64,000 nt of DNA. Origin: Limisphaerales bacterium. GTDB lineage: Bacteria; Verrucomicrobiota; Verrucomicrobiia; Limisphaerales; UBA8199. The notes under the pieces are model-generated. The model was given only the letters and a program-made list of their open reading frames with translations. It was not told the DNA's origin and made no database searches. The stretch covers positions 21,841 to 85,840 of the forward strand of contig JBGALR010000026.1 in assembly GCA_044223735.1 (NCBI GenBank), given 5' to 3'. The position numbers and the translations under genes were made by a program. Below, piece by piece: positions 2,047 to 61,496 of the stretch; within the stretch, counting starts at the first letter, position 1; each line of letters starts with the position of its first letter.

Positions 2047-2358
2047 GGAGCGGTCGCCCCGTCAACATTCCCAGATAGGTTGGCCGGGGGCGTTGGTCCC
2101 AGGGTTTGAAAGTTGGCGGAGTCCGCCGGCACCGGTAAGGGTTAAGTGGACCGCTTGAATTCTATAAGGGATCACAGAGCTGCCCCGCCGTAGTCCTCCG
2201 GCGGGACCGCCATGGCGGGGATAATTCAATTCGTCCGGGATTTCCGAGGAACGAAACTACTCAGCGCGATCCTGCCAAACGTTTGTGGTCTGTTGGTTCA
2301 CCGGGCCGGCATCATCGCCCGTCCTCCCGGAGACAGCGCCCTGCCCGATCAATTGCCG

Positions 2359-2817
2359 CGGGACCATTGGACAGCATTTGTCCAACCCCCTCGTTTAGAA
2401 TGGCGGGGTTATTGAAATACTGAATGATGATTTTAGAATGCAAAATGACGAAAGGTTTGGGCGTGCTCCGCGAGCTCGCCGAGAGATCGCTTTTTCCTTC
2501 CGTACCGCAGGCGAGCCCCGGGGTCCATCGGAGGGGAAACCCGGGATTTGAAGGACGGCCTTGTCTGAGCGTTTGCACGGGGTTAATGGGCGTGAAGGGC
2601 TGCGTTGAATCGCCTTGGGGTCGTGTTGCGGAGGGGATGGGAATGCGCTGGCTACGGCGTGCAGGCGCCCTGGTTCGGATGAGTCGTGGAGGGATACGGC
2701 ATGTTGCGCCCTGTGGCTCGCCGTGGAGCAGCGCAGTTTTTTTGGGCCGCCAGACGGCAATTGACACCCATGTAGATTTTACCAAACGAACCCAAAATGG
2801 GCCAAATCAAACCCAAC
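2359..2817 (+). repeat. Copy A (shorter, more diverged) of a three-copy conserved non-coding element
   Basis: Shares ordered blocks with 39472-40076 and the reverse complement of 60379-60936. The blocks are GGACCATTGGACAGCATTTGTCCAACCCCC (2361-2390), TTGGGCG plus hairpin (2457-2480), GAGAGATCGC (2481-2490), GAAGGACGGCC (2550-2560), GCGCCCTGGTTCGGATGAGTCGTGGAGGGATACGGC (2665-2700) and ATTTTACCAAACGAACCCAA (2776-2795). It lacks the boxA-like block and the distal 3' module. Confidence 0.85.
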
Positions 2818-31881: not shown

Positions 31882-31921
31882 CTCTACCCCACACAGGATA
31901 AACCGGGCTGCCACTCACCAA

Positions 31922-31957
31922 CGGGGCCGGTCGAAAGACCGGCCCCGTTCTTTTTTT
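31922..31957 (+). terminator. Rho-independent terminator after the LamG gene
   Basis: A perfect 10-bp GC-rich stem GGGGCCGGTC / GACCGGCCCC with a GAAA loop is followed by GTTCTTTTTTT. Confidence 0.8.
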
Positions 31958-32293
31958 GGTTGGAAGGAACCAGACCGATCCGCCGCCCCAGTCGAAGTCG
32001 CAACCTGGCTATTCGTGGCGATATTTGTTGCGGTAGGCCGAATAGTTCTGGCCAACTTTTTTTGAAGGCGCATCAAAGGTGTTGTTTACTGGATCGTGGC
32101 CCTCGCGCTAAAAGTCCCCGCCGCCCACGACATCGCGCACATTTTCCTCAAGCTCTCCGGCCGTCAGAAGTTGGGGCCGCCGAAGAGGTGAGCGGAGGGA
32201 CGGTCTCGACCCGCGCAGGCTTTCTCAAACAACCTGCCTGAAGGCGTCAAAGGCCATTACCAAAAGGTGCGCTGGCACAAAACTTTCAAGATT

Positions 32294-32649
32294 CTAGTAC
32301 CCCTTTACGAGTACGAGTTGCTGTTGAAGCGGTGTGCGCTTCCAAGCGGAGGGGATGCCCTCAGGGATTTGCCAGTTGGTCATGTGCGGTAAGCGGGAGT
32401 GCCCAGCGGACTCTGCGGCAGATGCTTGCCGCTGCGCTTGAACCAGAGGAGAACGCGTTCCAATCGCTCTACGAGGGCGCGGCTCTGGTGCGCCCGAAAG
32501 GCCTGGCACAACCGTGGGCCGGCTTTCATCCCACGCAGCTTGGATTCAATGGTGTAAAGATGCTGCAACTGGCGCAGGATCCAGGCAGCGGTCCGGGGAG
32601 ACGATTCCAGTGATTCAAAAATTTTCGGCGCACGTGTGCCCATCAGCAT
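32294..32649 (-). pseudogene. IS66-family transposase fragment (internal part, frameshifted)
   Basis: ORF 32380-32649 reads ILRQLQHLYTIESKLRGMKAGPRL...RALVERLERVLLWFKRSGKHLPQSPLGTPA, which matches my recollection of the central IS66 transposase region. It then breaks frame, and no N- or C-terminal parts are present. Confidence 0.5.
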
Positions 32650-32827
32650 CTCCGTATTTCAAAAGAAGCGCTGACTACTTGAGCCTTATCAGCCAACTAA
32701 TCAGGTACACCAATACACACGCCCCATACCACCACCAAAATCCCCTTGGGTTGGAGTGCTTTGAAAATAGTCGGGTCTTTCTGTTTATCGCCCAAGTAAC
32801 CATAAAGGGGTCGGTCCTGAATGGCAC

Positions 32828-33160
32828 TTAGTTAAGCCCTAAAACCCTTTTGCTGAGGTGTTTACGGCGAGTCACGCTGGCGAACTTTTGGAAGAGGAGA
32901 CGTCTGGAAAGCCGCTGCATGGCCGCCACCGTCGCTTGCAGCCGGCGTTGGTTTTGCGCCGCCTTTTTCAGTTCCCGATATTGCTCTTTGGATAGGGCTA
33001 CGGTGACGGTTTTTGCTTTCACTTTCCGGGTCCAGACATAGCGGCTGCCCTGTTGTCCTGGCTTGCGTTCAAAAACGCTGCCTTGGGTCAGGTAGCCGAC
33101 GCGGGCGAGTTGGCGGCGCAGGCGTTGGTATTGCGCGGGCATGGCAACGGCTTTTGGCAT
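32828..33160 (-). CDS. Small IS-internal accessory ORF (110 aa), divergent from the transposase; DUF6788-like by recollection
   Basis: MPKAVAMPAQYQRLRRQLARVGYLTQGSVFERKPGQQGSRYVWTRKVKAKTVTVALSKEQYRELKKAAQNQRRL. The ATG is at 33158-33160. This is the C-terminal part of the long ORF 32828-34054, the rest of which is antisense to the transposase. Confidence 0.45.
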   Translation of the reverse strand: MPKAVAMPAQYQRLRRQLARVGYLTQGSVFERKPGQQGSRYVWTRKVKAKTVTVALSKEQYRELKKAAQNQRRLQATVAAMQRLSRRLLFQKFASVTRRKHLSKRVLGLN

Positions 33161-33184
33161 GGACGCAGCAGAGCAGAAAGGGCT

Positions 33185-33214
33185 TTGACTGTCAATGTGG
33201 TGAGTATATATACT
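33185..33214 (+). promoter_or_regulatory. Candidate promoter of the IS4 transposase gene
   Basis: TTGACT (33185-33190), an 18-nt spacer, then TATACT (33209-33214), about 16 nt before ATG 33230. Confidence 0.3.
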
Positions 33215-33229
33215 TACTGTAAACAAACC

Positions 33230-34684
33230 ATGCACACCCCCTATTTTCCTTCCTGGCGCTCCCGGCTGGCCGCGTTGGGGTCCCGCCACGCGCTCACTCT
33301 GCGCCAAAGCACACTCGAACAGCTCCAGGGTCATTTGCGCGGCTTGCTGCCGGCGCCGCTGCTTTCCAGCGAGGACGAAGGGCCAAACAGTCGCAACCGG
33401 ATCTTCGGCTTGCGGCTGACCTTTGAGTGCTTCATCTGGCAGATGCTCAAGCCGCGCACCTCCTGCCGTGAAGTGGTGCGCCACGTGCAAGCCTTGCGGC
33501 GCTTGCGCCGCCGCAGTCCCGCAGCCGAGGGAAATTCCGCCTACGTTCAAGCCCGCCAGCGCTTGCCAAAACCACGCCTGGCGCATGCGCTCACGGCGAC
33601 CGCCGAAGTGGCCGAACGGCGGATCACTGCTTCCCCGCAATTGCAGGGCCGGCCCGTCAAGGTCGTCGACGGCACGACGGTTCAACTGGCCGACACCCCC
33701 GCCAACCAGCAGCGCTTTCCCCAAAACAAGGCGCAAAAACCGGGCTGCGGCTTTCCCGTCATGAAACTGGTGGTGCTCTTTTCGCTCAATAGCGGAGCTT
33801 TGCTCCAGGCCGTCTGGGGCAGCCTCCATAACCACGATCTGCGTCTGTTCCAGCAACTCTGGAAGACTTTGGAAATAGGCGACATTCTTTTGGGAGACCG
33901 CGCCTTTGGAGAGTATACCTCGCTGGCCGGACTGTGCCAGCGAGGTATTGATGTGGTGGCGCGCCTGCACCAGCGGCGAGCGATCGATTTCCGCAAGGCC
34001 TGCCGCCTGGCCAAAGGGGACGCGCTCTTTAACTGGACCAAGAGTGACAACCAATGCGCCATCCTAAACCAAAAACGCTGGCGAGCCTTGCCGCGCCAAC
34101 TCACCGTGCGAGTCATTCGCTTTCACGCGCGCATCCGAGGACATCGCAACCGCCGCATCACCCTGGTGACCACGCTCCTGGACCCCAAACTCTATCCGGC
34201 GGAGCAGCTGATCGCCCTTTATGCCCGCCGCTGGCGCCTGGAACTGTGCCTGCGAGACCTCAAATCCATGATGGGCATGGAACAGTTGCGCTGTCAGTCC
34301 CCAGCCATGGCGGAAAAGGAACTGCTGGCCTACCTGATCGCCCACAATTTGGTCCGCTGCCTCATGGCCGAGTCGGTGGCGCAGTTCCACGCCCAGCTCG
34401 ACCGCCTCAGTTTCAAAGGAGCCCTGGACGGATTGCGCCAATTCAGCGCCGCGCTGGATCGAGCTCCCAACCAAAAATGCCGACGAGAACTCTGGCTCGA
34501 TCTCCTCCTTAACCTTGCCCGTGACCTGGTGCCTCTTCGCCCGGGACGGCGCGAACCCCGCGCACTCAAACGCCGACCAAAACAGTACCCCTTGCTCAAC
34601 CGACCACGTCACCAGTTTCGTGAAATCCCACACCGAAATCGCCATTGGAAAGCCAAACCACGAAATTACCGCACCCTTAACTAA
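33230..34684 (+). CDS. IS4-family DDE transposase
   Basis: 484 aa from MHTPYFPSW. It carries the IS4 signature Y-x2-R-x3-E-x6-K in LYARRWRLELCLRDLK, plus VDGTTVQL and LLGDRAFG DDE-region motifs. Confidence 0.9.
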   Translation: MHTPYFPSWRSRLAALGSRHALTLRQSTLEQLQGHLRGLLPAPLLSSEDEGPNSRNRIFGLRLTFECFIWQMLKPRTSCREVVRHVQALRRLRRRSPAAEGNSAYVQARQRLPKPRLAHALTATAEVAERRITASPQLQGRPVKVVDGTTVQLADTPANQQRFPQNKAQKPGCGFPVMKLVVLFSLNSGALLQAVWGSLHNHDLRLFQQLWKTLEIGDILLGDRAFGEYTSLAGLCQRGIDVVARLHQRRAIDFRKACRLAKGDALFNWTKSDNQCAILNQKRWRALPRQLTVRVIRFHARIRGHRNRRITLVTTLLDPKLYPAEQLIALYARRWRLELCLRDLKSMMGMEQLRCQSPAMAEKELLAYLIAHNLVRCLMAESVAQFHAQLDRLSFKGALDGLRQFSAALDRAPNQKCRRELWLDLLLNLARDLVPLRPGRREPRALKRRPKQYPLLNRPRHQFREIPHRNRHWKAKPRNYRTLN

Positions 34685-34744
34685 GTGCCATTCAGGACTG
34701 ACCCTTCATGGTGGACCACCCTCCCAAAATGTATCTAAAAAAGG

Positions 34745-35907
34745 CTAGAGCAGTAAGTTCATGCGCAGTTCTTGATAAAATTCCCGCAGGTAGTCTTCAA
34801 ATTCGTCATTGCGCTTGTCGCACAGCCAGCCGTTTCGATACCACCGATAATACGGAACGTGGATGATGCTCCAACCCGCCCGCGCTAGAATCTCAATTCT
34901 GTCAACGTGAGCCTCAGAATAACTTTTCCCATCTTGTCCGTAATGGCATTGCCCATCAACCTCCACCGCGCAGCATTCCCCGTTGCGTTCATTGAAAAGC
35001 ACAAAATCAAGGCGCTTCTGACCGCAACTTTCTACTTGATTGTACAATTTTAGCACAAGTTCACCACCGTGTTCCGCGATGAATTTGTGCAAAAATTCAT
35101 CGACGCGAATTTCAAATTCGGACTCGCGCAAATGAGGGTGGTATCGCCACGCGTAACGATTCAAAGCAGGCCGTGGCTCTACTTGATTATGCAACAGGCT
35201 ATGCTCAACCCAATGGCGATGAACCGCATGGATGAGGTGTTCTTTCGCCTCGTGCACCCTCACATAATTGTTGCAACTGACCGCGTAGTTGACGGCGTTG
35301 TTCTGATTGTGCGCCCAGATAAACTACCCCGCCTTCTCCTAAGAATTTCTCCAGCTGCCGTCGCACGACTTCGACGGCCGCTCTCTTGTGTGAAACCATC
35401 AAAACGCGCTTCTTCAAGAAAATGGCAGACAGCATCAATGCCGTGATGGTGTGAGACTTACCAGTCCCAGGGGGACCCTGAATATAGGAGATTTCGCTGC
35501 ACCACGCATTGTGCAAGGCCGTTCGTTGGTTTTCCGATAGCAGAATGGGAAGGAAGTTGATTGCTTCGTCAACCTTGCTCCCTGCAACCAAATCAGTCCT
35601 TATCGGAATTTTTCGATGCTCCAAAACGCCTTTGAGCAACTTGGCCAACAGTGGGTTTGTTCTTCTCAACCTGACCAACAAAAAGCCCCAATCCCAAATA
35701 CAAGCCCCTCGTCTGGTCTCTTTGCAGCAGCGCTTTCAATTGCAGCAGGTACTCTGGCATTCGCGCCTTCCTGTCATAATCAAAATAACAAGGATTTTGC
35801 TTTTTTGCCTTTCCATAGAGCACATTTTCAAAGCCCGACCGCAGCAAAATCTTCCTGCTAACTTCTTGCAAATAGTGAAGGTAGGCAATAACTGGGTTGT
35901 CTCCCAT
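34745..35907 (-). pseudogene. Degraded superfamily-1 (Upf1/DNA2-like, AAA_11 type) helicase fused to a DUF559/Vsr-like endonuclease domain
   Basis: Three overlapping ORFs lie in different frames. ORF 35593-35907 is the N-terminus. ORF 35205-35681 carries the P-loop GPPGTGKSHTITAL. ORF 34745-35263 carries the C-terminal nuclease-like CCAVEVDGQCHYG...RIEILARAGWSIIHVPYYRW. The second RecA-like helicase domain is missing. Confidence 0.6.
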
Positions 35908-35918
35908 ACGGCGCGGCC

Positions 35919-36416
35919 TTAGAACTTGATTGATTCTTCGAGGCTCTGCTTTAGAGCTTGGATTTGCTTGGTTGTCTCACCAAGAGCCTGCCTCAATTTG
36001 CCCGCACTTGCTTCCTCAGTCTCGCAAACCGTGGCGAGTCCAGTTTTGATGCTGGCTTCCAGATTTTTCAGCTGTGTTGCAAGTTGGTCCGCTTTCTCGG
36101 CAAGGTTCTGGAGTTTCTTGCCTTGCGCAGCCTGTTCGTCATCGGCTCGCTTCGCAGCGTTGACTTCCTGCGAACCGAGCAAGGAATTTGATTTCTCTAG
36201 CGCAGCCTGTAATGCGCTCAGTATGGAATTCGTTTTGCCTTGCGTGGACTCGATTAAGGAATGAATGGCAACGAGCGATTGAAGATTTAGTTGTGCGTCT
36301 TCCCGTTCTTTTTTGAATCGTTCGGCATTCGCTCGTGCGTTCTTTTCCAAATAGATTGCGATGCAGATAACAGCGACAAAGGTAACAACCCCAGTGATGA
36401 GAAGATAAAGTTCCAT
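35919..36416 (-). CDS. Membrane-anchored coiled-coil hypothetical protein
   Basis: 165 aa with an N-terminal TM segment (LYLLITGVVTFVAVICIAIYL) followed by heptad-like Q/K/E/L-rich sequence. It ends 12 nt upstream of the degraded helicase gene. Confidence 0.55.
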   Translation of the reverse strand: MELYLLITGVVTFVAVICIAIYLEKNARANAERFKKEREDAQLNLQSLVAIHSLIESTQGKTNSILSALQAALEKSNSLLGSQEVNAAKRADDEQAAQGKKLQNLAEKADQLATQLKNLEASIKTGLATVCETEEASAGKLRQALGETTKQIQALKQSLEESIKF

Positions 36417-36554
36417 CTGCGGCCTTTTGTTCCGCGCATACTAGCAATCGTGCATGGGGTGTGCAATTGTATTTTTGGCGGCAGCCCTTCCCGCACCTTA
36501 CTGCGTCGGCCACGAAGTCGTGTCTTCGGGATTTTCGGCCCAAGCAACTCGGAA

Positions 36555-36800
36555 ATGGGTCGGTTCGTAGTATTGACAGATTTGGGTCGCCCGTCATTGT
36601 GCCGAGGAGCGGCGGAGGAATTACGACTGCCCTATCCCGGGGCGATTTATCATGTCATGAGCCGTGGGGATCGGCGGCAGGGCATAGTGCGGACGGACGA
36701 CGGCCGCGAATTGTTTGTCCGGACGCTCGGCGAGGCCTGCGCCAAGACCGACGGCAGGTCCACGCCCGGCGTCTACGGCGCAACCACTTTCATTAGGTAG
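36555..36800 (+). pseudogene. Truncated IS200-like / REP-associated Y1 tyrosine transposase
   Basis: LRLPYPGAIYHVMSRGDRRQGIVRTDDGRELFVRTLGEACAK matches the N-terminal third of Y1 transposases. The sequence then leaves the expected pattern and stops, and no HUH-Y catalytic tail is present. Confidence 0.5.
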
Positions 36801-36974
36801 TCCCGACGCCCAAGCCCACCCTGGGGGAAGGGATGAAATGGTTTTTTGAGCCCTGGGAAGGCAAAAGCGAAAGTTGACAACACTGAGAATTGACCTCTTT
36901 TCAATTGCGGAATTGATTGCGGCTTTTGCAGAGTTCATCAATGCAGTTCGGCATCCGCGGTAAAGCCGGTGCGC

Positions 36975-38216
36975 CTATTTTTTGAACTTTTGCAAAACTC
37001 TGGTGCAGCGGCCCTGCACCAGATCGGCGACAGCTTTTGCCGTCGGATGGCTCGTAATCAGTCCCGGCGCTTTTGAAAGGACGGTTTCCGCCACTTCCCG
37101 CACTCGCCGTTTCACCATTGGCTTTGCTAGTCCCGTTTCATCTGCCAACTGGTCAAAGTTCTTTGGCTGCACCTTTTCAGATTCATACTCCCCGCCGATC
37201 TTCATCGCCATTTTCCTGGCGAGATCGGGGTAATAGGCAGTGCTGAGAACATCATAGAGCGGCGCAAGCCGCGGTTCATTTCCATAAAGCAGGGAGAAAT
37301 TTTTCCCGTGCGCGTCATGGTTTCCAATCAGGAAATTGAAAATGACCGCATCGAGCAAACGTTGCAGGTCGATCACCGGAGCGCTGGATAATTCGCGCAA
37401 TAGGTCAAAGCACTGCTTTAGCGAAGGCCCGCCTTCGTTTTGGTATTTGTTGTCAGGGATGATTCCCAGGGCTTGGCAGAAATCTTCCTGGTGCTGCCGT
37501 TCCAAGTATTCAGCGCCACTGGCATCTTTAAGCATGGTGCGGTCGTAACGCTCGACCAGTAGATAATCAACATCCTCAACCTTGCCAGCTTCCGCCCTCG
37601 CCGTCGGCAAACCGATGGCGTGGGCAAGCGTCATGCAAAATGCTTCGTTGAAAACGATTCCTTCAAAATGCGCAATCGCCGGTTTGAGAATATGTGTGCT
37701 GGGCGCTCCGCCAAGCGGAATCGAAATTTTACCATCATGGACATGCACCGCAATTTTATCCTGCGCTCCGGCTAGTGACAGCCGGATGCCATCCTCCCCC
37801 GCCATCAGCGGACGGCGCGGCAGCCTTTTGAGAATTTCCGTCAGCTTCCCGCTGGTCAACGGTCGGTGGCTGTAATTGCGTTCCGGCGGTTTTTCACCTG
37901 CCGGGATGAAGGTCACCGCTCCGGCGCATTCGCCGCCGATTTGTTCCAGCATGGCAAAATCGTTCCTGGCACTGATACCAAGATTTTTTGCGATGATCTC
38001 GCGCTTGCTTTCATCCGGCAATAGGCCCGCAAAAAATCCCCGGCATTCGTTGCGACTGAATTTTTCTTTTTTAAGCGGCAATGAATGTGACAAGGGCACG
38101 GCGTTGGGGTTGTTAAGCCAACCCTCGGCATAATAAAATGCCAACTGCCCATTCTCGTCCTGAATGAGTCGGCCTGCCAATTCCCGCTGCAAATAGACGT
38201 CCAATGTGCGAGGCAT
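36975..38216 (-). CDS. hipA: HipA-family serine/threonine kinase toxin
   Basis: 413 aa with a HipA N-terminal region (LDVYLQRELAGRLIQDENGQLAFYYAEGW, LPLKKEKFSRNECRGFFAGLLPDE) and a catalytic region (FNFLIGNHDAHGKNFSLLY). Confidence 0.9.
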   Translation of the reverse strand: MPRTLDVYLQRELAGRLIQDENGQLAFYYAEGWLNNPNAVPLSHSLPLKKEKFSRNECRGFFAGLLPDESKREIIAKNLGISARNDFAMLEQIGGECAGAVTFIPAGEKPPERNYSHRPLTSGKLTEILKRLPRRPLMAGEDGIRLSLAGAQDKIAVHVHDGKISIPLGGAPSTHILKPAIAHFEGIVFNEAFCMTLAHAIGLPTARAEAGKVEDVDYLLVERYDRTMLKDASGAEYLERQHQEDFCQALGIIPDNKYQNEGGPSLKQCFDLLRELSSAPVIDLQRLLDAVIFNFLIGNHDAHGKNFSLLYGNEPRLAPLYDVLSTAYYPDLARKMAMKIGGEYESEKVQPKNFDQLADETGLAKPMVKRRVREVAETVLSKAPGLITSHPTAKAVADLVQGRCTRVLQKFKK

Positions 38217-38219
38217 GGG

Positions 38220-38450
38220 TCAGGTTCCTTTCCTGCCGTTACCGGTGGGCGCGGTGAATTCAACTTTGATCCCCAGCGTATGCAGGACGGTCAGCACCTT
38301 GCCGAGCTGGCAAGTGGGCTTGCCTTTCTCCATATCAATGATGAACCGCAGGCCAGTGCCGGAGGTCATCGCCAAAGCTTTTTGGGTCACGCCCATTGTC
38401 TTGCGCGTGTTCTTGACCAGGTCGCCTATGGTTGCAGGGGTATGTTTCAT
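38220..38450 (-). CDS. hipB: HipB-like XRE-family HTH antitoxin
   Basis: 76 aa from MKHTPATIGDLVKNTRKTMGVTQKALAMTSGTGLRFIIDMEKGKPT. Its stop lies 3 nt before the hipA start. Confidence 0.8.
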   Translation of the reverse strand: MKHTPATIGDLVKNTRKTMGVTQKALAMTSGTGLRFIIDMEKGKPTCQLGKVLTVLHTLGIKVEFTAPTGNGRKGT

Positions 38451-38464
38451 GGCTTGTAATCGAT

Positions 38465-38580
38465 ATGTTACCGTGCGGTAACATTGCACCCTTTTTCGTG
38501 TCCAAGCAAGGGAATTATTCCCGAACGGGAACAATGTGGGCTATTGATGCTGGAAAAATGGCTTTATTCCCGTGCGGGAA
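38465..38580. promoter_or_regulatory. Three palindromic candidate HipB operator sites upstream of hipBA
   Basis: The sites are ATGTTACCG-TG-CGGTAACAT (38465-38484), TTCCCG-AA-CGGGAA (38518-38531) and TTCCCG-TG-CGGGAA (38567-38580). Their centres are spaced about 50 and 49 bp apart. Confidence 0.5.
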
Positions 38581-38661
38581 TGTTGCAGAGGTCAATCCCT
38601 GTGAGGCTCCGGCGGCTTCGGCCCTCGGTCTTTGTCAGGGTTGGGCGCCAATGAAATTAAA

Positions 38662-38736
38662 TGGTGCGCGATACAGGGTTCGAACCTGTGACCCCTTCCG
38701 TGTCAAGGAAGTGCTCTACCACTGAGCTAACCGCGC
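38662..38736 (-). tRNA. tRNA-Val (anticodon GAC), CCA encoded
   Basis: The reverse complement reads GCGCGGTTAGCTCAGTGGTAGAGCACTTCCTTGACACGGAAGGGGTCACAGGTTCGAACCCTGTATCGCGCACCA. It has a 7-bp acceptor stem (one G-U), the anticodon loop TTGACAC and the T-loop GGTTCGAACC. Confidence 0.9.
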
Positions 38737-39471
38737 AACTGTGTGGAAGGGCGAACGAGAATGGTTGGTTTTCGTCGCCACTCGCCAAATCTGCGAGGGA
38801 GGAAAACTATGCGGGTTTGCGGTCGCTGGCAAGCTGAAATCCTGGTGAAATCCGGGAACGAAGATTTCACCGCGGAGCCGCCGAGGCGCGGAGGGACGGC
38901 ATATTCGGCTGTTTTACGGGCTACGGTTCTGGAGAATGTCCGCCCGCATCGACGTGATGTCGCTCCGCTGGAGCTTCGGGGTGGGAGGCGCGGGGCAACG
39001 GCGATTTCACGCCTATGGCGTGGTAATTTTGCGGCTGGTGCCGTTGTGAAATCGGTGCGGGACGACCATTTTCGATCAAAAAGACTTCCGCGATTTCCGA
39101 TCCTTCCGGGATTGCCGATAAAAGTGCATTTTATGCGATTTAGGCCCTTGCAATGTTCGTTGGCGGGGGTAAGGTCGCGATGTTGGAGTCCCACAAGGGG
39201 CCTGAACGCTGGACCGCGGGGTGGGGCGATTGATCTTTGATATTTGAATTTTGAGGGGATTAACCGCGGAGGCGCGGAGCGCGGAGAGGCAGGACGAGCG
39301 GGCGTCTGAGCTTTGCCTTCTGTGTGCGGGGTGAACCTCCGGTGCCGCATGGTGGTGTCGGGACTTGGCGGCAAGGTGGTCGAGTTTTCTCATCCGTGAA
39401 AATCGTGATAGCCGTGGTCTTCCTTTCTCTACGAGCTCGGCGTCCTCCTGTTAAATTTTGTTTCGGAAAGT

Positions 39472-40076
39472 CCGGCCGTTGGACCATTGGACAGTATTTG
39501 TCCAACCCCCCGGGCTAAGATCGCTGGGTTGGTAGATGTGCTCTTTGAAAATAGCGGTCGGTTGGTGGTAGGGCGGCCTCTCCGAGGGCGCCGGAAGAAA
39601 AATTGATATCTCGGCGGACTCGACGAGTCTGACCGGGCATTCTGCCTTGGCTTACGTCGATAAGAATGTTTGGGCGGTCGCGGTGACCGCCGAGAAACGC
39701 TTTGTTTTTCGGTCCCGCATGCGGGAGAGAGATCGCGCCACCTTCGGAAGGACGGCCCAGTCCAGCCACGTGTACGGGGTTGCGGCCCACTTTGGTCGGG
39801 TTGGGGACGGGTGAGGAAGTGGGCTGGGAACGCGATGGAGGCGCCTTGGTTCGGCCGAGTCGCGGAGCCGTACGGCATGTTGCGCGCCGTTGCGCGGCGC
39901 AGTTCAATGGAGCAAGAAGGAAGTTCTCGAAAATGTAAATTTTACCAAACGAACCCAACTTTGGAAATTCACAAAGTCTTTACTGATAGTGGGTTATGAC
40001 TGATTTTGAGTTTTGCGATTTGGAAAACGAACCCAACTTGGGAATGTGCGTATGCAGATTTTCGAATTTCGAATGG
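39472..40076 (+). repeat. Copy B (full length) of the three-copy conserved non-coding element
   Basis: Block 1 lies at 39481-39510. Block 2 with TGCTCTTTGAAAA lies at about 39516-39554. The hairpin is at 39673-39691, GAGAGATCGC at 39727-39736, GAAGGACGGCC at 39747-39757, block 5 at 39841-39876 and the 3' module at 39927-40076. ORFs across it are frame-inconsistent between copies. Confidence 0.9.
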
Positions 40077-40250: not shown

Positions 40251-41195
40251 TCAGCCGTCTTCTTTGCGAGTGGCGAAGTAGTTGCGGACGTATTGGTGCA
40301 TCGCGGGTTTGTCAGAGTTCCAGCGCCAGCCGCCGTGTTCGTCTTCGGCGAGGTCGACGGCGGGGTCGAATAGGAACTCGCTGAATTCGCGATGCCGGTC
40401 GGCGTAACGGCGATCTTTCAAATCGCCATGCCATAAATGAATCAACGTTCCGTCGATGAATCCCAAGCTCCCGTTGATGCGTTCATAATGTTGGCGGGCC
40501 CAGGCCAGGTAGTGCGCGGCCCAGCGATCGTTCATTTGGTTGTATTGGGAGCCGAAGTCGAACCGGCCGAGTTGGGCGCAGAGGATGGCGCGGTTGCCGC
40601 TGCCCATGATACAGGCGTCATAAAACCCGGTTTCAAGTGCGTCGCGCCGTCCGGCCCAGGCGAGGCCGGAGTTCCAGCCTTTGAGTCGCATGTTTTGCAC
40701 GAGCATGGTGGCATCCACGGTTCCCGTGGCCAGGCCGTAGGCGAAGGCGCGGCCGTGGCGGAGGTTGTCGGGATGTTCGAGTTGCTGCGGCGAAACATCG
40801 CGCGCGAGTTCGCAAACATTTTGAAACGGCTGGACGATGGGAAATTTTTCCAGGGCGTCGCAGGTGCGAGCCGCCCAGTCGGCGGACTGAAATATGACGT
40901 CACAATCGAGCCAGGCGATGTTGCGGCAGGCTTGCGGAACGGCACGCAAGGCGAGATTCAACAACCGTTCCTTGTGCCACATGACATCGCGACCGGGAAG
41001 TTGAATGAGGATGTCGGCTTCGTCCCGGCGCAGGTCGAACCTGCCGTCGAGTGAGTGTTCGACGGTTACGAGCGGAATGTTGAGGTGCTCGCGAAAGAGT
41101 CGGTAATTTTGCAGCCGACGTTGATAGCGCTGGGGATTAAAATAGCAGGTGATGGCCCAGAGGGGAGCTGACGGGGATTTCGCGGTTGCGTTCAT
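40251..41195 (-). CDS. Hypothetical protein, possibly a GT-A-fold glycosyltransferase-like enzyme
   Basis: 314 aa with WAITCYFNPQRYQRRLQNYRLFREHL and a DxD-like LDCDVIF. The family was not firmly recognised. Confidence 0.55.
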   Translation of the reverse strand: MNATAKSPSAPLWAITCYFNPQRYQRRLQNYRLFREHLNIPLVTVEHSLDGRFDLRRDEADILIQLPGRDVMWHKERLLNLALRAVPQACRNIAWLDCDVIFQSADWAARTCDALEKFPIVQPFQNVCELARDVSPQQLEHPDNLRHGRAFAYGLATGTVDATMLVQNMRLKGWNSGLAWAGRRDALETGFYDACIMGSGNRAILCAQLGRFDFGSQYNQMNDRWAAHYLAWARQHYERINGSLGFIDGTLIHLWHGDLKDRRYADRHREFSEFLFDPAVDLAEDEHGGWRWNSDKPAMHQYVRNYFATRKEDG

Positions 41196-59620: not shown

Positions 59621-60307
59621 TCACCGGACTATGTCATCAACGGGCTTTTTTTCAATCCTCACGGATGAGACGCTGGCGGCCAAATCGTTAAGTCTCATTT
59701 CCAGCACGACGGTTTCCAGACGAACGTGGCCCAGGTCGGGCCAAAGAAAGTTCAGCAGTCGCGGGGACACAGCCCCGACGATCTGCTGCGCTTTCTGTGA
59801 TGCTCGACCGCCTGCGTTTCCCCGCATAAACGGATTGTCGATGCCCAGCGGAAACCCGGAACGATACGAGGGGTAACTGATTTCCACCCGGCAAGCCTGT
59901 GCCCCATGCGGGACGAGAATTAAAAACCTTGCGCCCTCCATCGTTGACGGGATGCCATCGGATCGATCCGGCCGAACCATTACGGATTTGGGACAATCCA
60001 CCCAATGATTATCAACACATGCTTGGATCGTCTCCCGTAGGATAGGCACCGGATGGTTGGTGGAAACGTGCTGGCGAGCGGCGAACTCAATTGCGTCGTA
60101 CGCGGGCTGTTCCTGAGTTCCCACATCCAACTCCTCCGACCAATAAAGGCTCTGGCGGTTGGCCGGCAACAGCGGTTTCACGCTCATCGGAATCAGGTCA
60201 AACGGACGTTGCTCCGGCCAACCCCACAGGGCGAAGAGGACCACCATCATCAACGCGATTACACCGCCCGCGATGAGCGCGATATTCTTTAATTTGCGGG
60301 AAAGCAT
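59621..60307 (-). CDS. Hypothetical membrane-anchored protein
   Basis: 228 aa with an N-terminal TM segment (IALIAGGVIALMMVVLFALWGW). No family was recognised. It lies directly downstream, on the same strand, of repeat copy C. Confidence 0.55.
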   Translation of the reverse strand: MLSRKLKNIALIAGGVIALMMVVLFALWGWPEQRPFDLIPMSVKPLLPANRQSLYWSEELDVGTQEQPAYDAIEFAARQHVSTNHPVPILRETIQACVDNHWVDCPKSVMVRPDRSDGIPSTMEGARFLILVPHGAQACRVEISYPSYRSGFPLGIDNPFMRGNAGGRASQKAQQIVGAVSPRLLNFLWPDLGHVRLETVVLEMRLNDLAASVSSVRIEKKPVDDIVR

Positions 60308-60378: not shown

Positions 60379-60936
60379 CCATTCGAAATTCGAAAATCTG
60401 CATTCGACATTCCCAAGTTGGGTTCGTTTTCCAAATCGCAAAACTCTAAATCGGTCATAACCCATTATCAGTAATGACTTTGTGAATTTCCCAAGTTGGG
60501 TTCGTTTGGTAAAATTTACATTTTCGCGAACTTCCCCCTCGCTCCGAACAGCCGCGCTGCGCCCCAAGCCGTACCACTCCGCGACTCGGCCGAACCAAGG
60601 CATCTCCATGACCTCCGGAAGGGTGCCGAAGGGTATCGAACCGTCCAAAGGGAAGGCTGGAGAAAGCCAGGGCTGTCCTTCCGACGGTAGGGCGATCTCC
60701 GAGAGCGCCGGGAAAAAATTGATTCCTCAACGGTCCCAGCGACCGCCCAAGCATCACAATTCAATACACCGAACCAAACTAACCAACGGCGCCCTTCCTG
60801 ACAGCGGCCGGGACTGGCATCGAGTCCGGCCTGCCTCCTGCGAGTACTCACCATCTATTTTCAAAGAACAAATCTACCGACCCCGCGATCTTAAACCAGG
60901 GGGTGGGACAAATGCTGTCCAATGGTCCAACGCCGG
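60379..60936 (-). repeat. Copy C (full length, inverted relative to copy B) of the three-copy conserved non-coding element
   Basis: Its reverse complement aligns block for block with 39472-40076. Block 1 lies at 60899-60928, TGTTCTTTGAAAA at 60858-60870, the hairpin at 60729-60747 and the 3' module at about 60379-60525. By eye the 3' module shows about 7 differences in about 150 nt versus copy B. Confidence 0.9.
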
Positions 60937-61133
60937 AATTCTTATCGGATCTCCTAAAAGATTTACCTTGGACCAACTTTGATTAGCCGGGGCGAAGGCA
61001 CCACCATCGTTACCCAATTTCCCCTCCGCCCCTCACGCCCGGGCCCGCGCTGAGTGCCCGGGGGGTGTTCAAAGAGGGCATGCAAAAAGATGGCTTTGGT
61101 CCGCCGTTTCCGTGCATTTTGACGGCCAACGTT

Positions 61134-61496
61134 ATGAAGAAGAACTCCGTTGTTCCTGGTCCCGTGCTGCCCAAATTGCGGGTCGTTTGCAGTCGCAGCA
61201 CGACGCTGGGCCCGGGGCGGGTGGAGTTGATGGAATTGGTCGGCGAAACGGGAAGCCTGCGCGCCGCGGCGTCAAAAATGGGAATGGCCTACATGACGGC
61301 GTGGAAGCACATGAAAGTTTTGAATCGCACCTTTCGTGGGCCAGTGGTGGTGTCGAAGCGGGGCGGCAAAGCGGGCGGGGGAGCTGAGTTGACCGAGGTC
61401 GGTCGACAGGTAGTAAAATTGTATCATCGAATGGAAAAGCAAAGCCACGCCGCCATCCAAAAAGGATTTCGACAGCTTCAGGCGTTGGTGAAGTAG
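61134..61496 (+). CDS. ModE-N-terminal-domain-like winged-helix regulator
   Basis: GPGRVELMELVGETGSLRAAASKMGMAYMTAWKHMKVLNRTFRGPVVVSKRGGKAGGGAELTEVG matches the ModE/LysR-type HTH_1-like N-domain. No Mop domains are present. Confidence 0.7.
   Translation: MKKNSVVPGPVLPKLRVVCSRSTTLGPGRVELMELVGETGSLRAAASKMGMAYMTAWKHMKVLNRTFRGPVVVSKRGGKAGGGAELTEVGRQVVKLYHRMEKQSHAAIQKGFRQLQALVK

Follow-up and report, generated by a model that had tools for sequence, protein, structure and literature searches.

Bacterial interspersed mosaic elements (BIMEs) and repetitive extragenic palindromes (REPs) are non-coding, multi-copy, intergenic repeats in which a few conserved motifs stand in a fixed order together with G+C-rich palindromic units; many are plausibly transcribed and some members lie inside genes. 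Putative mobile promoters and small repeats such as Correia elements bear promoter features and are located upstream of, and point towards, unrelated genes. A stretch of 64,000 nucleotides from a Limisphaerales bacterium of the Verrucomicrobiota (assembly GCA_044223735.1, contig JBGALR010000026.1, positions 21,841 to 85,840), hereafter called the window, carries three copies, A, B and C, of an intergenic element that recalls both groups. In common with BIMEs and REPs, the copies combine G+C-rich palindromes and conserved motifs in intergenic mosaics. However, they are far longer (0.46-0.6 kb), they are composed of six different blocks with promoter-like and boxA-like signals rather than of one repeated palindrome, and their anchor motif is non-palindromic and identical across phyla, whereas REPs are usually species- or genus-specific. 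Putative mobile promoters and Correia elements likewise present promoter features to unrelated genes, but their copies are recent and nearly identical, and many have inverted repeats and target duplications. The copies in the window are old, are conserved in their blocks alone and lack terminal repeats. REPs tagged with GTAG or CGTC have been reported in Planctomycetes and Verrucomicrobia (PMC3733652). One GTAG-preceded hairpin is found in a spacer of copy B (~39565-39592), and the window contains no gene for a REP-associated tyrosine transposase (RAYT). Our preferred reading, held tentatively, is that each copy is a lineage-specific, modular, non-coding mosaic repeat that would possess its own regulated promoter and leader and that ends in a widely shared motif.

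The copies and the blocks conserved between them are located as follows.

2352-2817, forward strand: copy A, the most divergent copy, between hsdM (8-1741, reverse) and an S1/P1 nuclease gene with two alternative starts (2964/2982-4103, forward)
39472-40076, forward strand: copy B, between a tRNA-Val gene (38662-38736, reverse) and a convergent open reading frame (ORF) of 314 aa (40251-41195, reverse)
60379-60936, reverse strand: copy C, 71 nt 5' of a co-oriented 228-aa ORF (59621-60307, reverse) and divergent from an HTH_1 gene (61080-61496, forward)
2361-2390 forward, 39481-39510 forward and 60899-60928 reverse: block 1, GGACCATTGGACAG(C/T)ATTTGTCC(A/C)ACCCCC, with exactly three occurrences in the window
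39843-39876 forward, 2667-2700 forward and 60568-60601 reverse: block 5, GCCTTGGTTCGGCCGAGTCGCGGAGCCGTACGGC, with exactly three occurrences in the window and none expected
39933-39958 forward, 2770-2795 forward and 60496-60521 reverse: block 6, ATGTAAATTTTACCAAACGAACCCAA, including the 19-mer TTTTACCAAACGAACCCAA
40022-40047 forward (B) and 60407-60432 reverse (C): repeat of the block 6 core in the tail, in direct orientation, GGAAAACGAACCCAACTTGGGAATGT
2805-2817: degenerate second motif of copy A, AATCAAACCCAAC

The original prediction held that three stretches of the window carry the same blocks in the same order, and this is borne out by direct reading, by pattern counts and by a MAFFT alignment in which the blocks form islands amid poorly aligned sequence. 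Blocks 1, 5 and 6 are shared exactly by all copies; no occurrence of block 1 is expected from 100 shuffles, and the block 6 core AACGAACCCAA has five perfect occurrences, one in A and two in each of B and C, where 1.5 would be expected. Block 2 is limited to B and C, as predicted, with a shortened and degenerate form in A, and the spacers do differ in length between copies. The proposed block extents required some enlargement: B and C, which are closer to each other than either is to A, additionally share ~10 nt 5' of block 1 and a tail of ~130 nt after block 6 that is ~90% identical and holds the second block 6 core. The copies are old rather than recent duplicates, which agrees with the earlier view. 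A k-mer census of the 64 kb yielded no repeat family beyond these three dispersed copies.

The 19-mer of block 6 extends far beyond this genome. A scan for exact TTTTACCAAACGAACCCAA in species-representative genomes, one genome per species, returned at least 89 loci, compared with ~4 expected by chance according to our own arithmetic for a 19-mer in 1.2e12 positions. Among the matches listed, at least 17 contigs derive from the Verrucomicrobiia metagenome-assembled genome (MAG) SPRUCE 672 and at least 12 from MAG MAS4.bin79, in which tandem units of 194 nt include the motif. Other listed matches belong to Anaerohalosphaeraceae, Phycisphaerales, Pirellulales, Gemmataceae, Acidobacteriaceae, Bryobacterales (including Bryobacteraceae), Anaerolineales and at least seven alphaproteobacterial MAGs. 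Most listed matches are intergenic repeats, in which the 19-mer is often arrayed, bounds short variable modules and tends to face the downstream gene. The 89 listed loci contain 176 copies with at most one mismatch to a 12-nt core, usually clustered on one strand, and copies that lay outside the selection of the scan give the consensus TTTTTGC-N-AAACGAACCCAA(T/C)T. Interspersed repeats of several bacterial phyla have the motif TTTT(A/G)C-N-AAACGAACCCAA as their common anchor. Beyond it, the listed loci share nothing with the window, and a literature search for the motif sequence returned nothing relevant. Homologues of blocks 1-5 were not found in species-representative genomes (searched with block 5), Joint Genome Institute (JGI) metagenomes (searched with the block 1 core) and viral contigs (searched with blocks 1 and 5). 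Plasmid and phage collections gave no blastn match, and a 31-nt motif query against plasmids produced chance-level matches only; an 18-mer of block 6 found six unrelated matches in viral contigs, all in A+T-rich phage sequence.

How the motif is arranged differs between lineages. At planctomycete loci, copies follow one another on a single strand at intervals of 40-190 nt and delimit short modules that are found again in other loci and genomes. These modules include the hairpin AGCTGGCCGCCGGCAGCT, a palindrome headed by GTAG, runs of CTTGTATNC and a unit of ~70 nt, CGCGGCTATGT...CGCGGCATAAA; motif-bounded module arrays are likewise present at Acidobacteria and Anaerolineales loci. About 13 of 16 planctomycete arrays lie upstream of a co-oriented gene, and two gltX leaders (loci L031 and L033 of those retrieved) differ by exactly one module plus motif unit. 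By a hand count, 34 of 56 intervals between adjacent copies on the same strand are divisible by 3, and at L050 four motif copies stand in one open frame of 351 codons; across motif loci no reading frame is open in general. Around the motif, the Verrucomicrobiia element is conserved over ~215 nt, a segment that contains a GGTTGGCA box upstream of the motif, the motif itself, a second copy inverted ~60 nt further on and a third in direct orientation. Of the ~20 copies in the Verrucomicrobiia MAG, 12 are preceded on the same strand, at a variable distance of 200-330 nt, by a module with a palindrome, TATCG-N-CGATA, a sigma-70-like promoter, TGGACG-17-TATAAT (10 of 12 positions matching), and a boxA-like GTTGTTTGAMATA or GTTCTTTGAAAAA 8-9 nt later; the remaining copies have another upstream module. 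The gene downstream is co-oriented for 13 of 18 Verrucomicrobiia motif copies (an approximate count, like the planctomycete one, because genes in the fetched loci were crudely called as longest ORFs), and the orientation bias is present in both of these lineages. Window and Verrucomicrobiia elements have the same order of parts, namely putative operator, promoter-like site, boxA-like box, variable hairpins and motif.

The Verrucomicrobiia motif and its inverted copy, ACCCAAC ... GTTGGGT, also fit the RYYYAAC and GTTRRRY ends of integron attC sites at a distance of ~60 nt. However, the window copies contain direct motif copies only, the arrays of other phyla are direct repeats 40-190 nt apart that hold no gene cassettes, and no integron integrase was seen. 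A CRISPR array was also considered and rejected: the motif spacing is irregular (10-372 nt) and the same 'spacers' recur in other loci and genomes.

The 5' end of the element, which forms the proposed control region, contains the following features.

39487-39505 forward, 2367-2385 forward and 60904-60922 reverse: operator-like palindrome of block 1, TTGGACA-N5-TGTCCAA, with a mismatch in one arm in C
39516-39521 forward (TAAGAT), 2396-2401 forward (TAGAAT) and 60888-60893 reverse (TAAGAT): -10-like hexamer, starting 10 nt after the palindrome in all copies
39540-39554, forward strand: boxA-like GCTCTTTGAAAATAG of copy B
60855-60869, reverse strand: boxA-like GTTCTTTGAAAATAG of copy C
2408-2420: degenerate boxA-like stretch GTTATTGAAATAC of copy A

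The block 1 palindrome is a perfect 7-N5-7 repeat and is likely to be a repressor or activator site for the putative promoter that follows. Its core was found at seven loci in JGI metagenomes, none of which has the other blocks. On two of these, the unrelated contigs L001 (~1190-1210) and L002 (~1830-1850), the palindrome CCATTGGACAGCATTTGTCC is followed 11-12 nt later by TATAAT or TAATAT, ahead of a gene. The product of the L001 gene starts with MCGRYS and, as recognised by eye only, resembles SOS-response-associated peptidases; this position of the palindrome hints at the operator of a stress or DNA-damage regulator. Sigma-54, MerR-type and sigma-32 readings of block 1 were considered by eye, their spacings fitted poorly and no such claim is made.

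BoxA sequences, which serve as antitermination signals through Nus factors, occur in rRNA operons, at suhB and in CRISPR leaders, and their published gamma-proteobacterial consensus is GYTCTTTAANA (PMC5725501). The strings GCTCTTTGAAA and GTTCTTTGAAA in block 2 of B and C (GYTCTTTGAAA) agree with this consensus at 10 of 11 positions, differing at position 8, which is G rather than A. They are the only matches to GYTCTTTRANA in the 64 kb, where 0.33 would be expected, and both occupy the same place in the element, just downstream of the promoter-like site and at the start of a long, putatively untranslated stretch. For comparison, E. coli rrnA has GCTCTTTAACA in its leader and GCTCTTTAAAA in its spacer, and GTTCTTTGAAAACTGAAT is a conserved primer site in the 16S-23S spacer of mollicutes (PMC4312986). 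Copy A has no good match. As only the degenerate GTTATTGAAATAC is found there, possibly serving as a -35 element instead, a boxA function is hypothesized for B and C only. With a palindrome and a -10-like box at a fixed distance, and a boxA-like block 2 in two copies, the multi-site regulatory module that the original prediction named as one of its alternatives comes closer to what is observed.

According to the mechanism that we propose, the element would act in cis as a portable, regulated promoter with an untranslated leader. Transcription would start after block 1 and run through the element on the sense strand, and in B and C the boxA-like RNA might recruit NusB/NusE, so that an untranslated RNA of ~0.5 kb could escape Rho. 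It would then proceed into the next gene, that is the S1/P1 nuclease gene after A and the 228-aa orphan after C, with B an orphan copy. The family may spread by duplication or transposition, along a route tied to the 19-nt motif. The architecture is one of short conserved modules amid fast-changing G+C-rich hairpins, rather than of one compactly folded RNA; in the middle of the element, stems are kept while sequence and length drift.

Several observations weigh against this reading. At the 5' end, a sigma-70 scan called no sense promoter at block 1 or 2 of B or C, because the -10-like box there has no canonical -35, while GTTATTGAAATAC of A matches the boxA consensus poorly and may be the -35 of a TTGAAA-16-TAGAAT promoter instead. 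Copy B has no co-oriented gene downstream. With all phyla pooled, 21 co-oriented stand against 18 opposed downstream genes, which is no orientation bias, and the crude gene calls make every such count approximate. A profile of the Verrucomicrobiia 5' module did not match the window significantly (E = 0.54), so homology between the two promoter modules was dropped and their common architecture is treated as an analogy or parallel; a 3' module profile matched only the motif plus or minus 10 nt. Finally, the lack of terminal repeats, target duplications and a transposase leaves mobility as a conjecture.

That the element is non-coding was already argued in the original prediction from frame differences between the copies, and the later comparisons agree. 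Matches between copies in tblastx were short, switched frame and contained stop codons on both strands, which excludes a conserved protein on either of them; a six-frame chimeric query of A and B, and the 119-aa ORF that crosses C, found no match among 5.8 billion proteins. A protein-coding gene or pseudogene was rejected on these grounds. The original prediction's failure to match the element to an Rfam family also held. At the gathering threshold the tRNA-Val was the sole match in the window, and copy B gave only noise at E values up to 10; 18 motif-bearing loci yielded tRNAs only and seven motif-rich loci, at E values up to 1, nothing. A known RNA family was therefore rejected, as no covariance-model match to the element reached gathering or E-value cut-offs.

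The hairpins of the middle section bear on whether the element could be an RNA gene.

39673-39691 forward (B), 2460-2480 forward (A) and 60729-60747 reverse (C): block 3 hairpin, GGCGGTC, loop GCGGT, GACCGCC
39729-39757 forward (B), 2483-2560 (A) and 60671-60699 reverse (C): block 4, GAGATCGC, a short stem (CCTT/AAGG) and GAAGGACGGCC

One alternative is a family of stand-alone structured RNA genes of ~450-600 nt, with the blocks as functional core and the spacers as variable peripheral stems. It would account for blocks that are conserved and ordered between spacers of variable length. The block 3 hairpin is kept with two inner pairs changed on both sides between A and B/C (C-G to U-A, U-A to C-G), and in C it has two G-U pairs on the sense strand that become A-C on the other. 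The loop of the block 4 stem is 3 nt long in B, and in A the same stem (TCCTTC/GAAGGA) holds ~50 extra nt exactly there; block 5 TTGGTTCG is complementary, with one bulge, to block 6 CGAACCCAA, a candidate pairing that is invariant in all copies. The sense minimum free energy z-score of B, -2.4, points the same way, but those of C (-1.45) and A (+0.82) are weak or positive, and the RNAalifold covariation term (+0.74) is close to zero and gives no support, three sequences being too few to show covariation. Furthermore, blocks 1-5 are without homologues in the genome, metagenome and viral sequences searched, and a single fold does not explain why block 6 is found in many unrelated settings, in either orientation and also arrayed. 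We consider such an RNA gene unlikely. Of the structured RNA suggested in the original prediction, what stands is a few local hairpins kept among the copies, and one large structured RNA is weakly supported. The kept hairpins would fit transcription of the sense strand and fit REP-like palindromes equally well. The sense strand is favoured by the G-U pairs of C and by z-scores that, for B and C, are somewhat better in the sense direction (antisense: B -0.97, C -0.14, A -0.56). The strand matters for a further alternative, in which an extended -10 promoter inside block 6 (TGGTAAAAT) fires leftwards and the element is the 5' leader of hsdM (A), tRNA-Val (B) and HTH_1 (C). The site is the following.

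39939-39967 reverse (B), 2776-2805 reverse (A) and 60488-60515 forward (C): antisense promoter-like site from a promoter scan, TTTCCA, 17 nt and TAAAAT preceded by TG, overlapping block 6

The scan found it in every copy, matching at 9 of 12 positions and with a TG extension, and each time the next gene ahead of it is co-oriented. Against it, the -35 hexamers are weak and unlike between copies, the hairpin G-U pairs turn into A-C mismatches, the antisense z-scores are near zero and the tRNA-Val gene lies 1.2 kb away. Elsewhere, moreover, the base before TTTTACC is mostly T, which makes the hexamer TAAAAA, with its last T missing, so the motif is not inherently a promoter; this reading appears quite improbable.

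It is also conceivable, though we again think it improbable, that the element works at the DNA level as a non-autonomous mobile or recombining unit whose blocks, above all the 19-nt motif, are protein-binding sites. In that case the motif would be the site of a transposase or recombinase beside which modules are gained or lost, and this overlaps with our preferred reading as regards spread. The exactness of the 19-mer across phyla within lineage-specific surroundings speaks for such a site, as do the motif-module-motif arrays, the direct and inverted copies ~60 nt apart in the Verrucomicrobiia element, the perfect palindrome of two motif copies at L047 and the GTAG-headed REP-like hairpins among the planctomycete modules (PMC3733652). 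The frequent spacing by multiples of 3, together with the planctomycete locus whose modules lie in an open frame, recalls the in-frame Rickettsia palindromic elements (RPEs). The related gltX leaders that differ by one module plus motif unit fit as well, but this indel could equally stem from recombination between repeats. No transposase or recombinase linked to the motif was found; none was seen beside it among the 89 listed loci, which were not scanned systematically, and the only transposase of the window, an IS4-type enzyme (33053-34684), has no block or motif copy nearby. The ends of A, B and C have no inverted repeat in common and no duplicated flank, and the age of the window copies goes with the lack of any sign of recent movement. 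The original prediction had set the element apart from insertion sequences (IS) and MITEs (miniature inverted-repeat transposable elements). Its grounds stand, since the copies have no transposase, terminal inverted repeats or target duplications, and the window no motif-linked transposase; what it did not foresee is that many phyla have an interspersed repeat motif with block 6 at its core. The idea of a 58-kb transposon with A and C for its inverted ends was rejected, the intervening genes being ordinary carbohydrate and housekeeping genes.

If the preferred reading of a promoter-bearing mosaic repeat is correct, a portable operator, promoter and leader would place unrelated genes, which here encode an orphan membrane protein and a nuclease of secreted type, under one regulator in a little-studied bacterium of the Planctomycetes-Verrucomicrobia-Chlamydiae (PVC) type. 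A wider proposal, which we regard as more doubtful, is that the motif marks an undescribed superfamily of modular non-coding elements in Verrucomicrobiota, Planctomycetota, Acidobacteriota, Chloroflexota and Alphaproteobacteria, put together or moved by a single conserved partner (a recombinase, a transposase or an RNA- or DNA-binding protein), with the window copies as long, promoter-bearing members. An exact, non-palindromic 19-mer in the interspersed repeats of several phyla implies a conserved and so far unnamed partner. Its identification could show how intergenic mosaic repeats come to be assembled and what makes them accumulate in front of genes in Planctomycetes and Verrucomicrobia. 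The motif would likewise account for the breaks that short-read assemblies of these organisms show at such sites. Short-read contigs of the same strain from two activated-sludge data sets, identical to the window, have three ends near the element, of which two stop inside C (in the tail and just after block 1) and the third stops ~70 nt short of the tail of B.

Some occurrences of the motif stand apart from the intergenic arrays. The exact 19-mer lies in frame, encoding FLPNEP(N/K), inside two conserved genes, namely Bryobacteraceae mnmG (L045 5626-5644, L092 1139-1157) and Acidobacteriota ferrochelatase (L019, L065, L100). These are probably codon coincidences, although an in-frame solo motif is conceivable; in mnmG the site coincides with what appears to be a short extra loop relative to E. 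coli MnmG. In an Acidobacteriaceae MAG (L047 6690-6760), two motif copies form a perfect palindrome (AAACGAACCCAATTGGGTTCGTTT) accompanied by a third copy, and this cluster lies ~50-100 nt upstream of two tRNA genes, which echoes the position of B upstream of tRNA-Val. The ~70-nt unit CGCGGCTATGT...(hairpin)...CGCGGCATAAA often follows the motif (L031 2500-2760, reverse; L033 5130-5500, reverse; L023, L022, L050 and L070). Its inner stem appears changed on both sides between loci, it has no Rfam match and two diverged units are present in the long gltX leader of L033; this planctomycete unit may be a structured RNA in its own right. Three functions for the motif itself were rejected. As an rRNA-complementary site its best duplex with E. 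coli rrnA reaches -14 kcal/mol against a shuffled mean of -16.7, as a peptide-coding unit (LPNEPN) it has no consistently open frame, and as a sigma-70 promoter, in either direction, it fails as a general property.

The window encodes glycoside hydrolases, a protein with an FGE-sulfatase domain and a prepilin-type N-methylation protein, and has a PVC-type look. Four neighbouring proteins that were searched matched only short contigs, 100% identical, from two activated-sludge samples, and searches with the S1/P1 nuclease gene, from two different starts, returned no match. The 228-aa ORF downstream of C is an orphan gene: its product has an N-terminal hydrophobic segment, has no Pfam match and matched only itself among 5.8 billion proteins. 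A stretch of low third-position G+C at 31900-39400 adjoins the tRNA-Val gene (38662-38736, reverse) and contains the IS4-type DDE transposase (33053-34684), helicase/nuclease-like gene fragments (34745-35681) and hipA (36975-38216), upstream of which is a small ORF (38220-38534). The stretch has the appearance of an island that has integrated next to the tRNA gene, with copy B just beyond the other side of that gene. Within this stretch, at 32204-32234 on the reverse strand, lies a boxA-like GGTTGTTTGAGAAAG, the best match in the window to the Verrucomicrobiia 5' profile (E = 0.25, not significant). Downstream of B, short repeats of CGAATG(G) and TTCGAA crowd the segment 40040-40235; TTCGAATTTCGAATGGGGAATGGCGAATGGG and TTCGAATGCTGAGTTTCGAACGCCGAATG are examples, of which C shares only the first.

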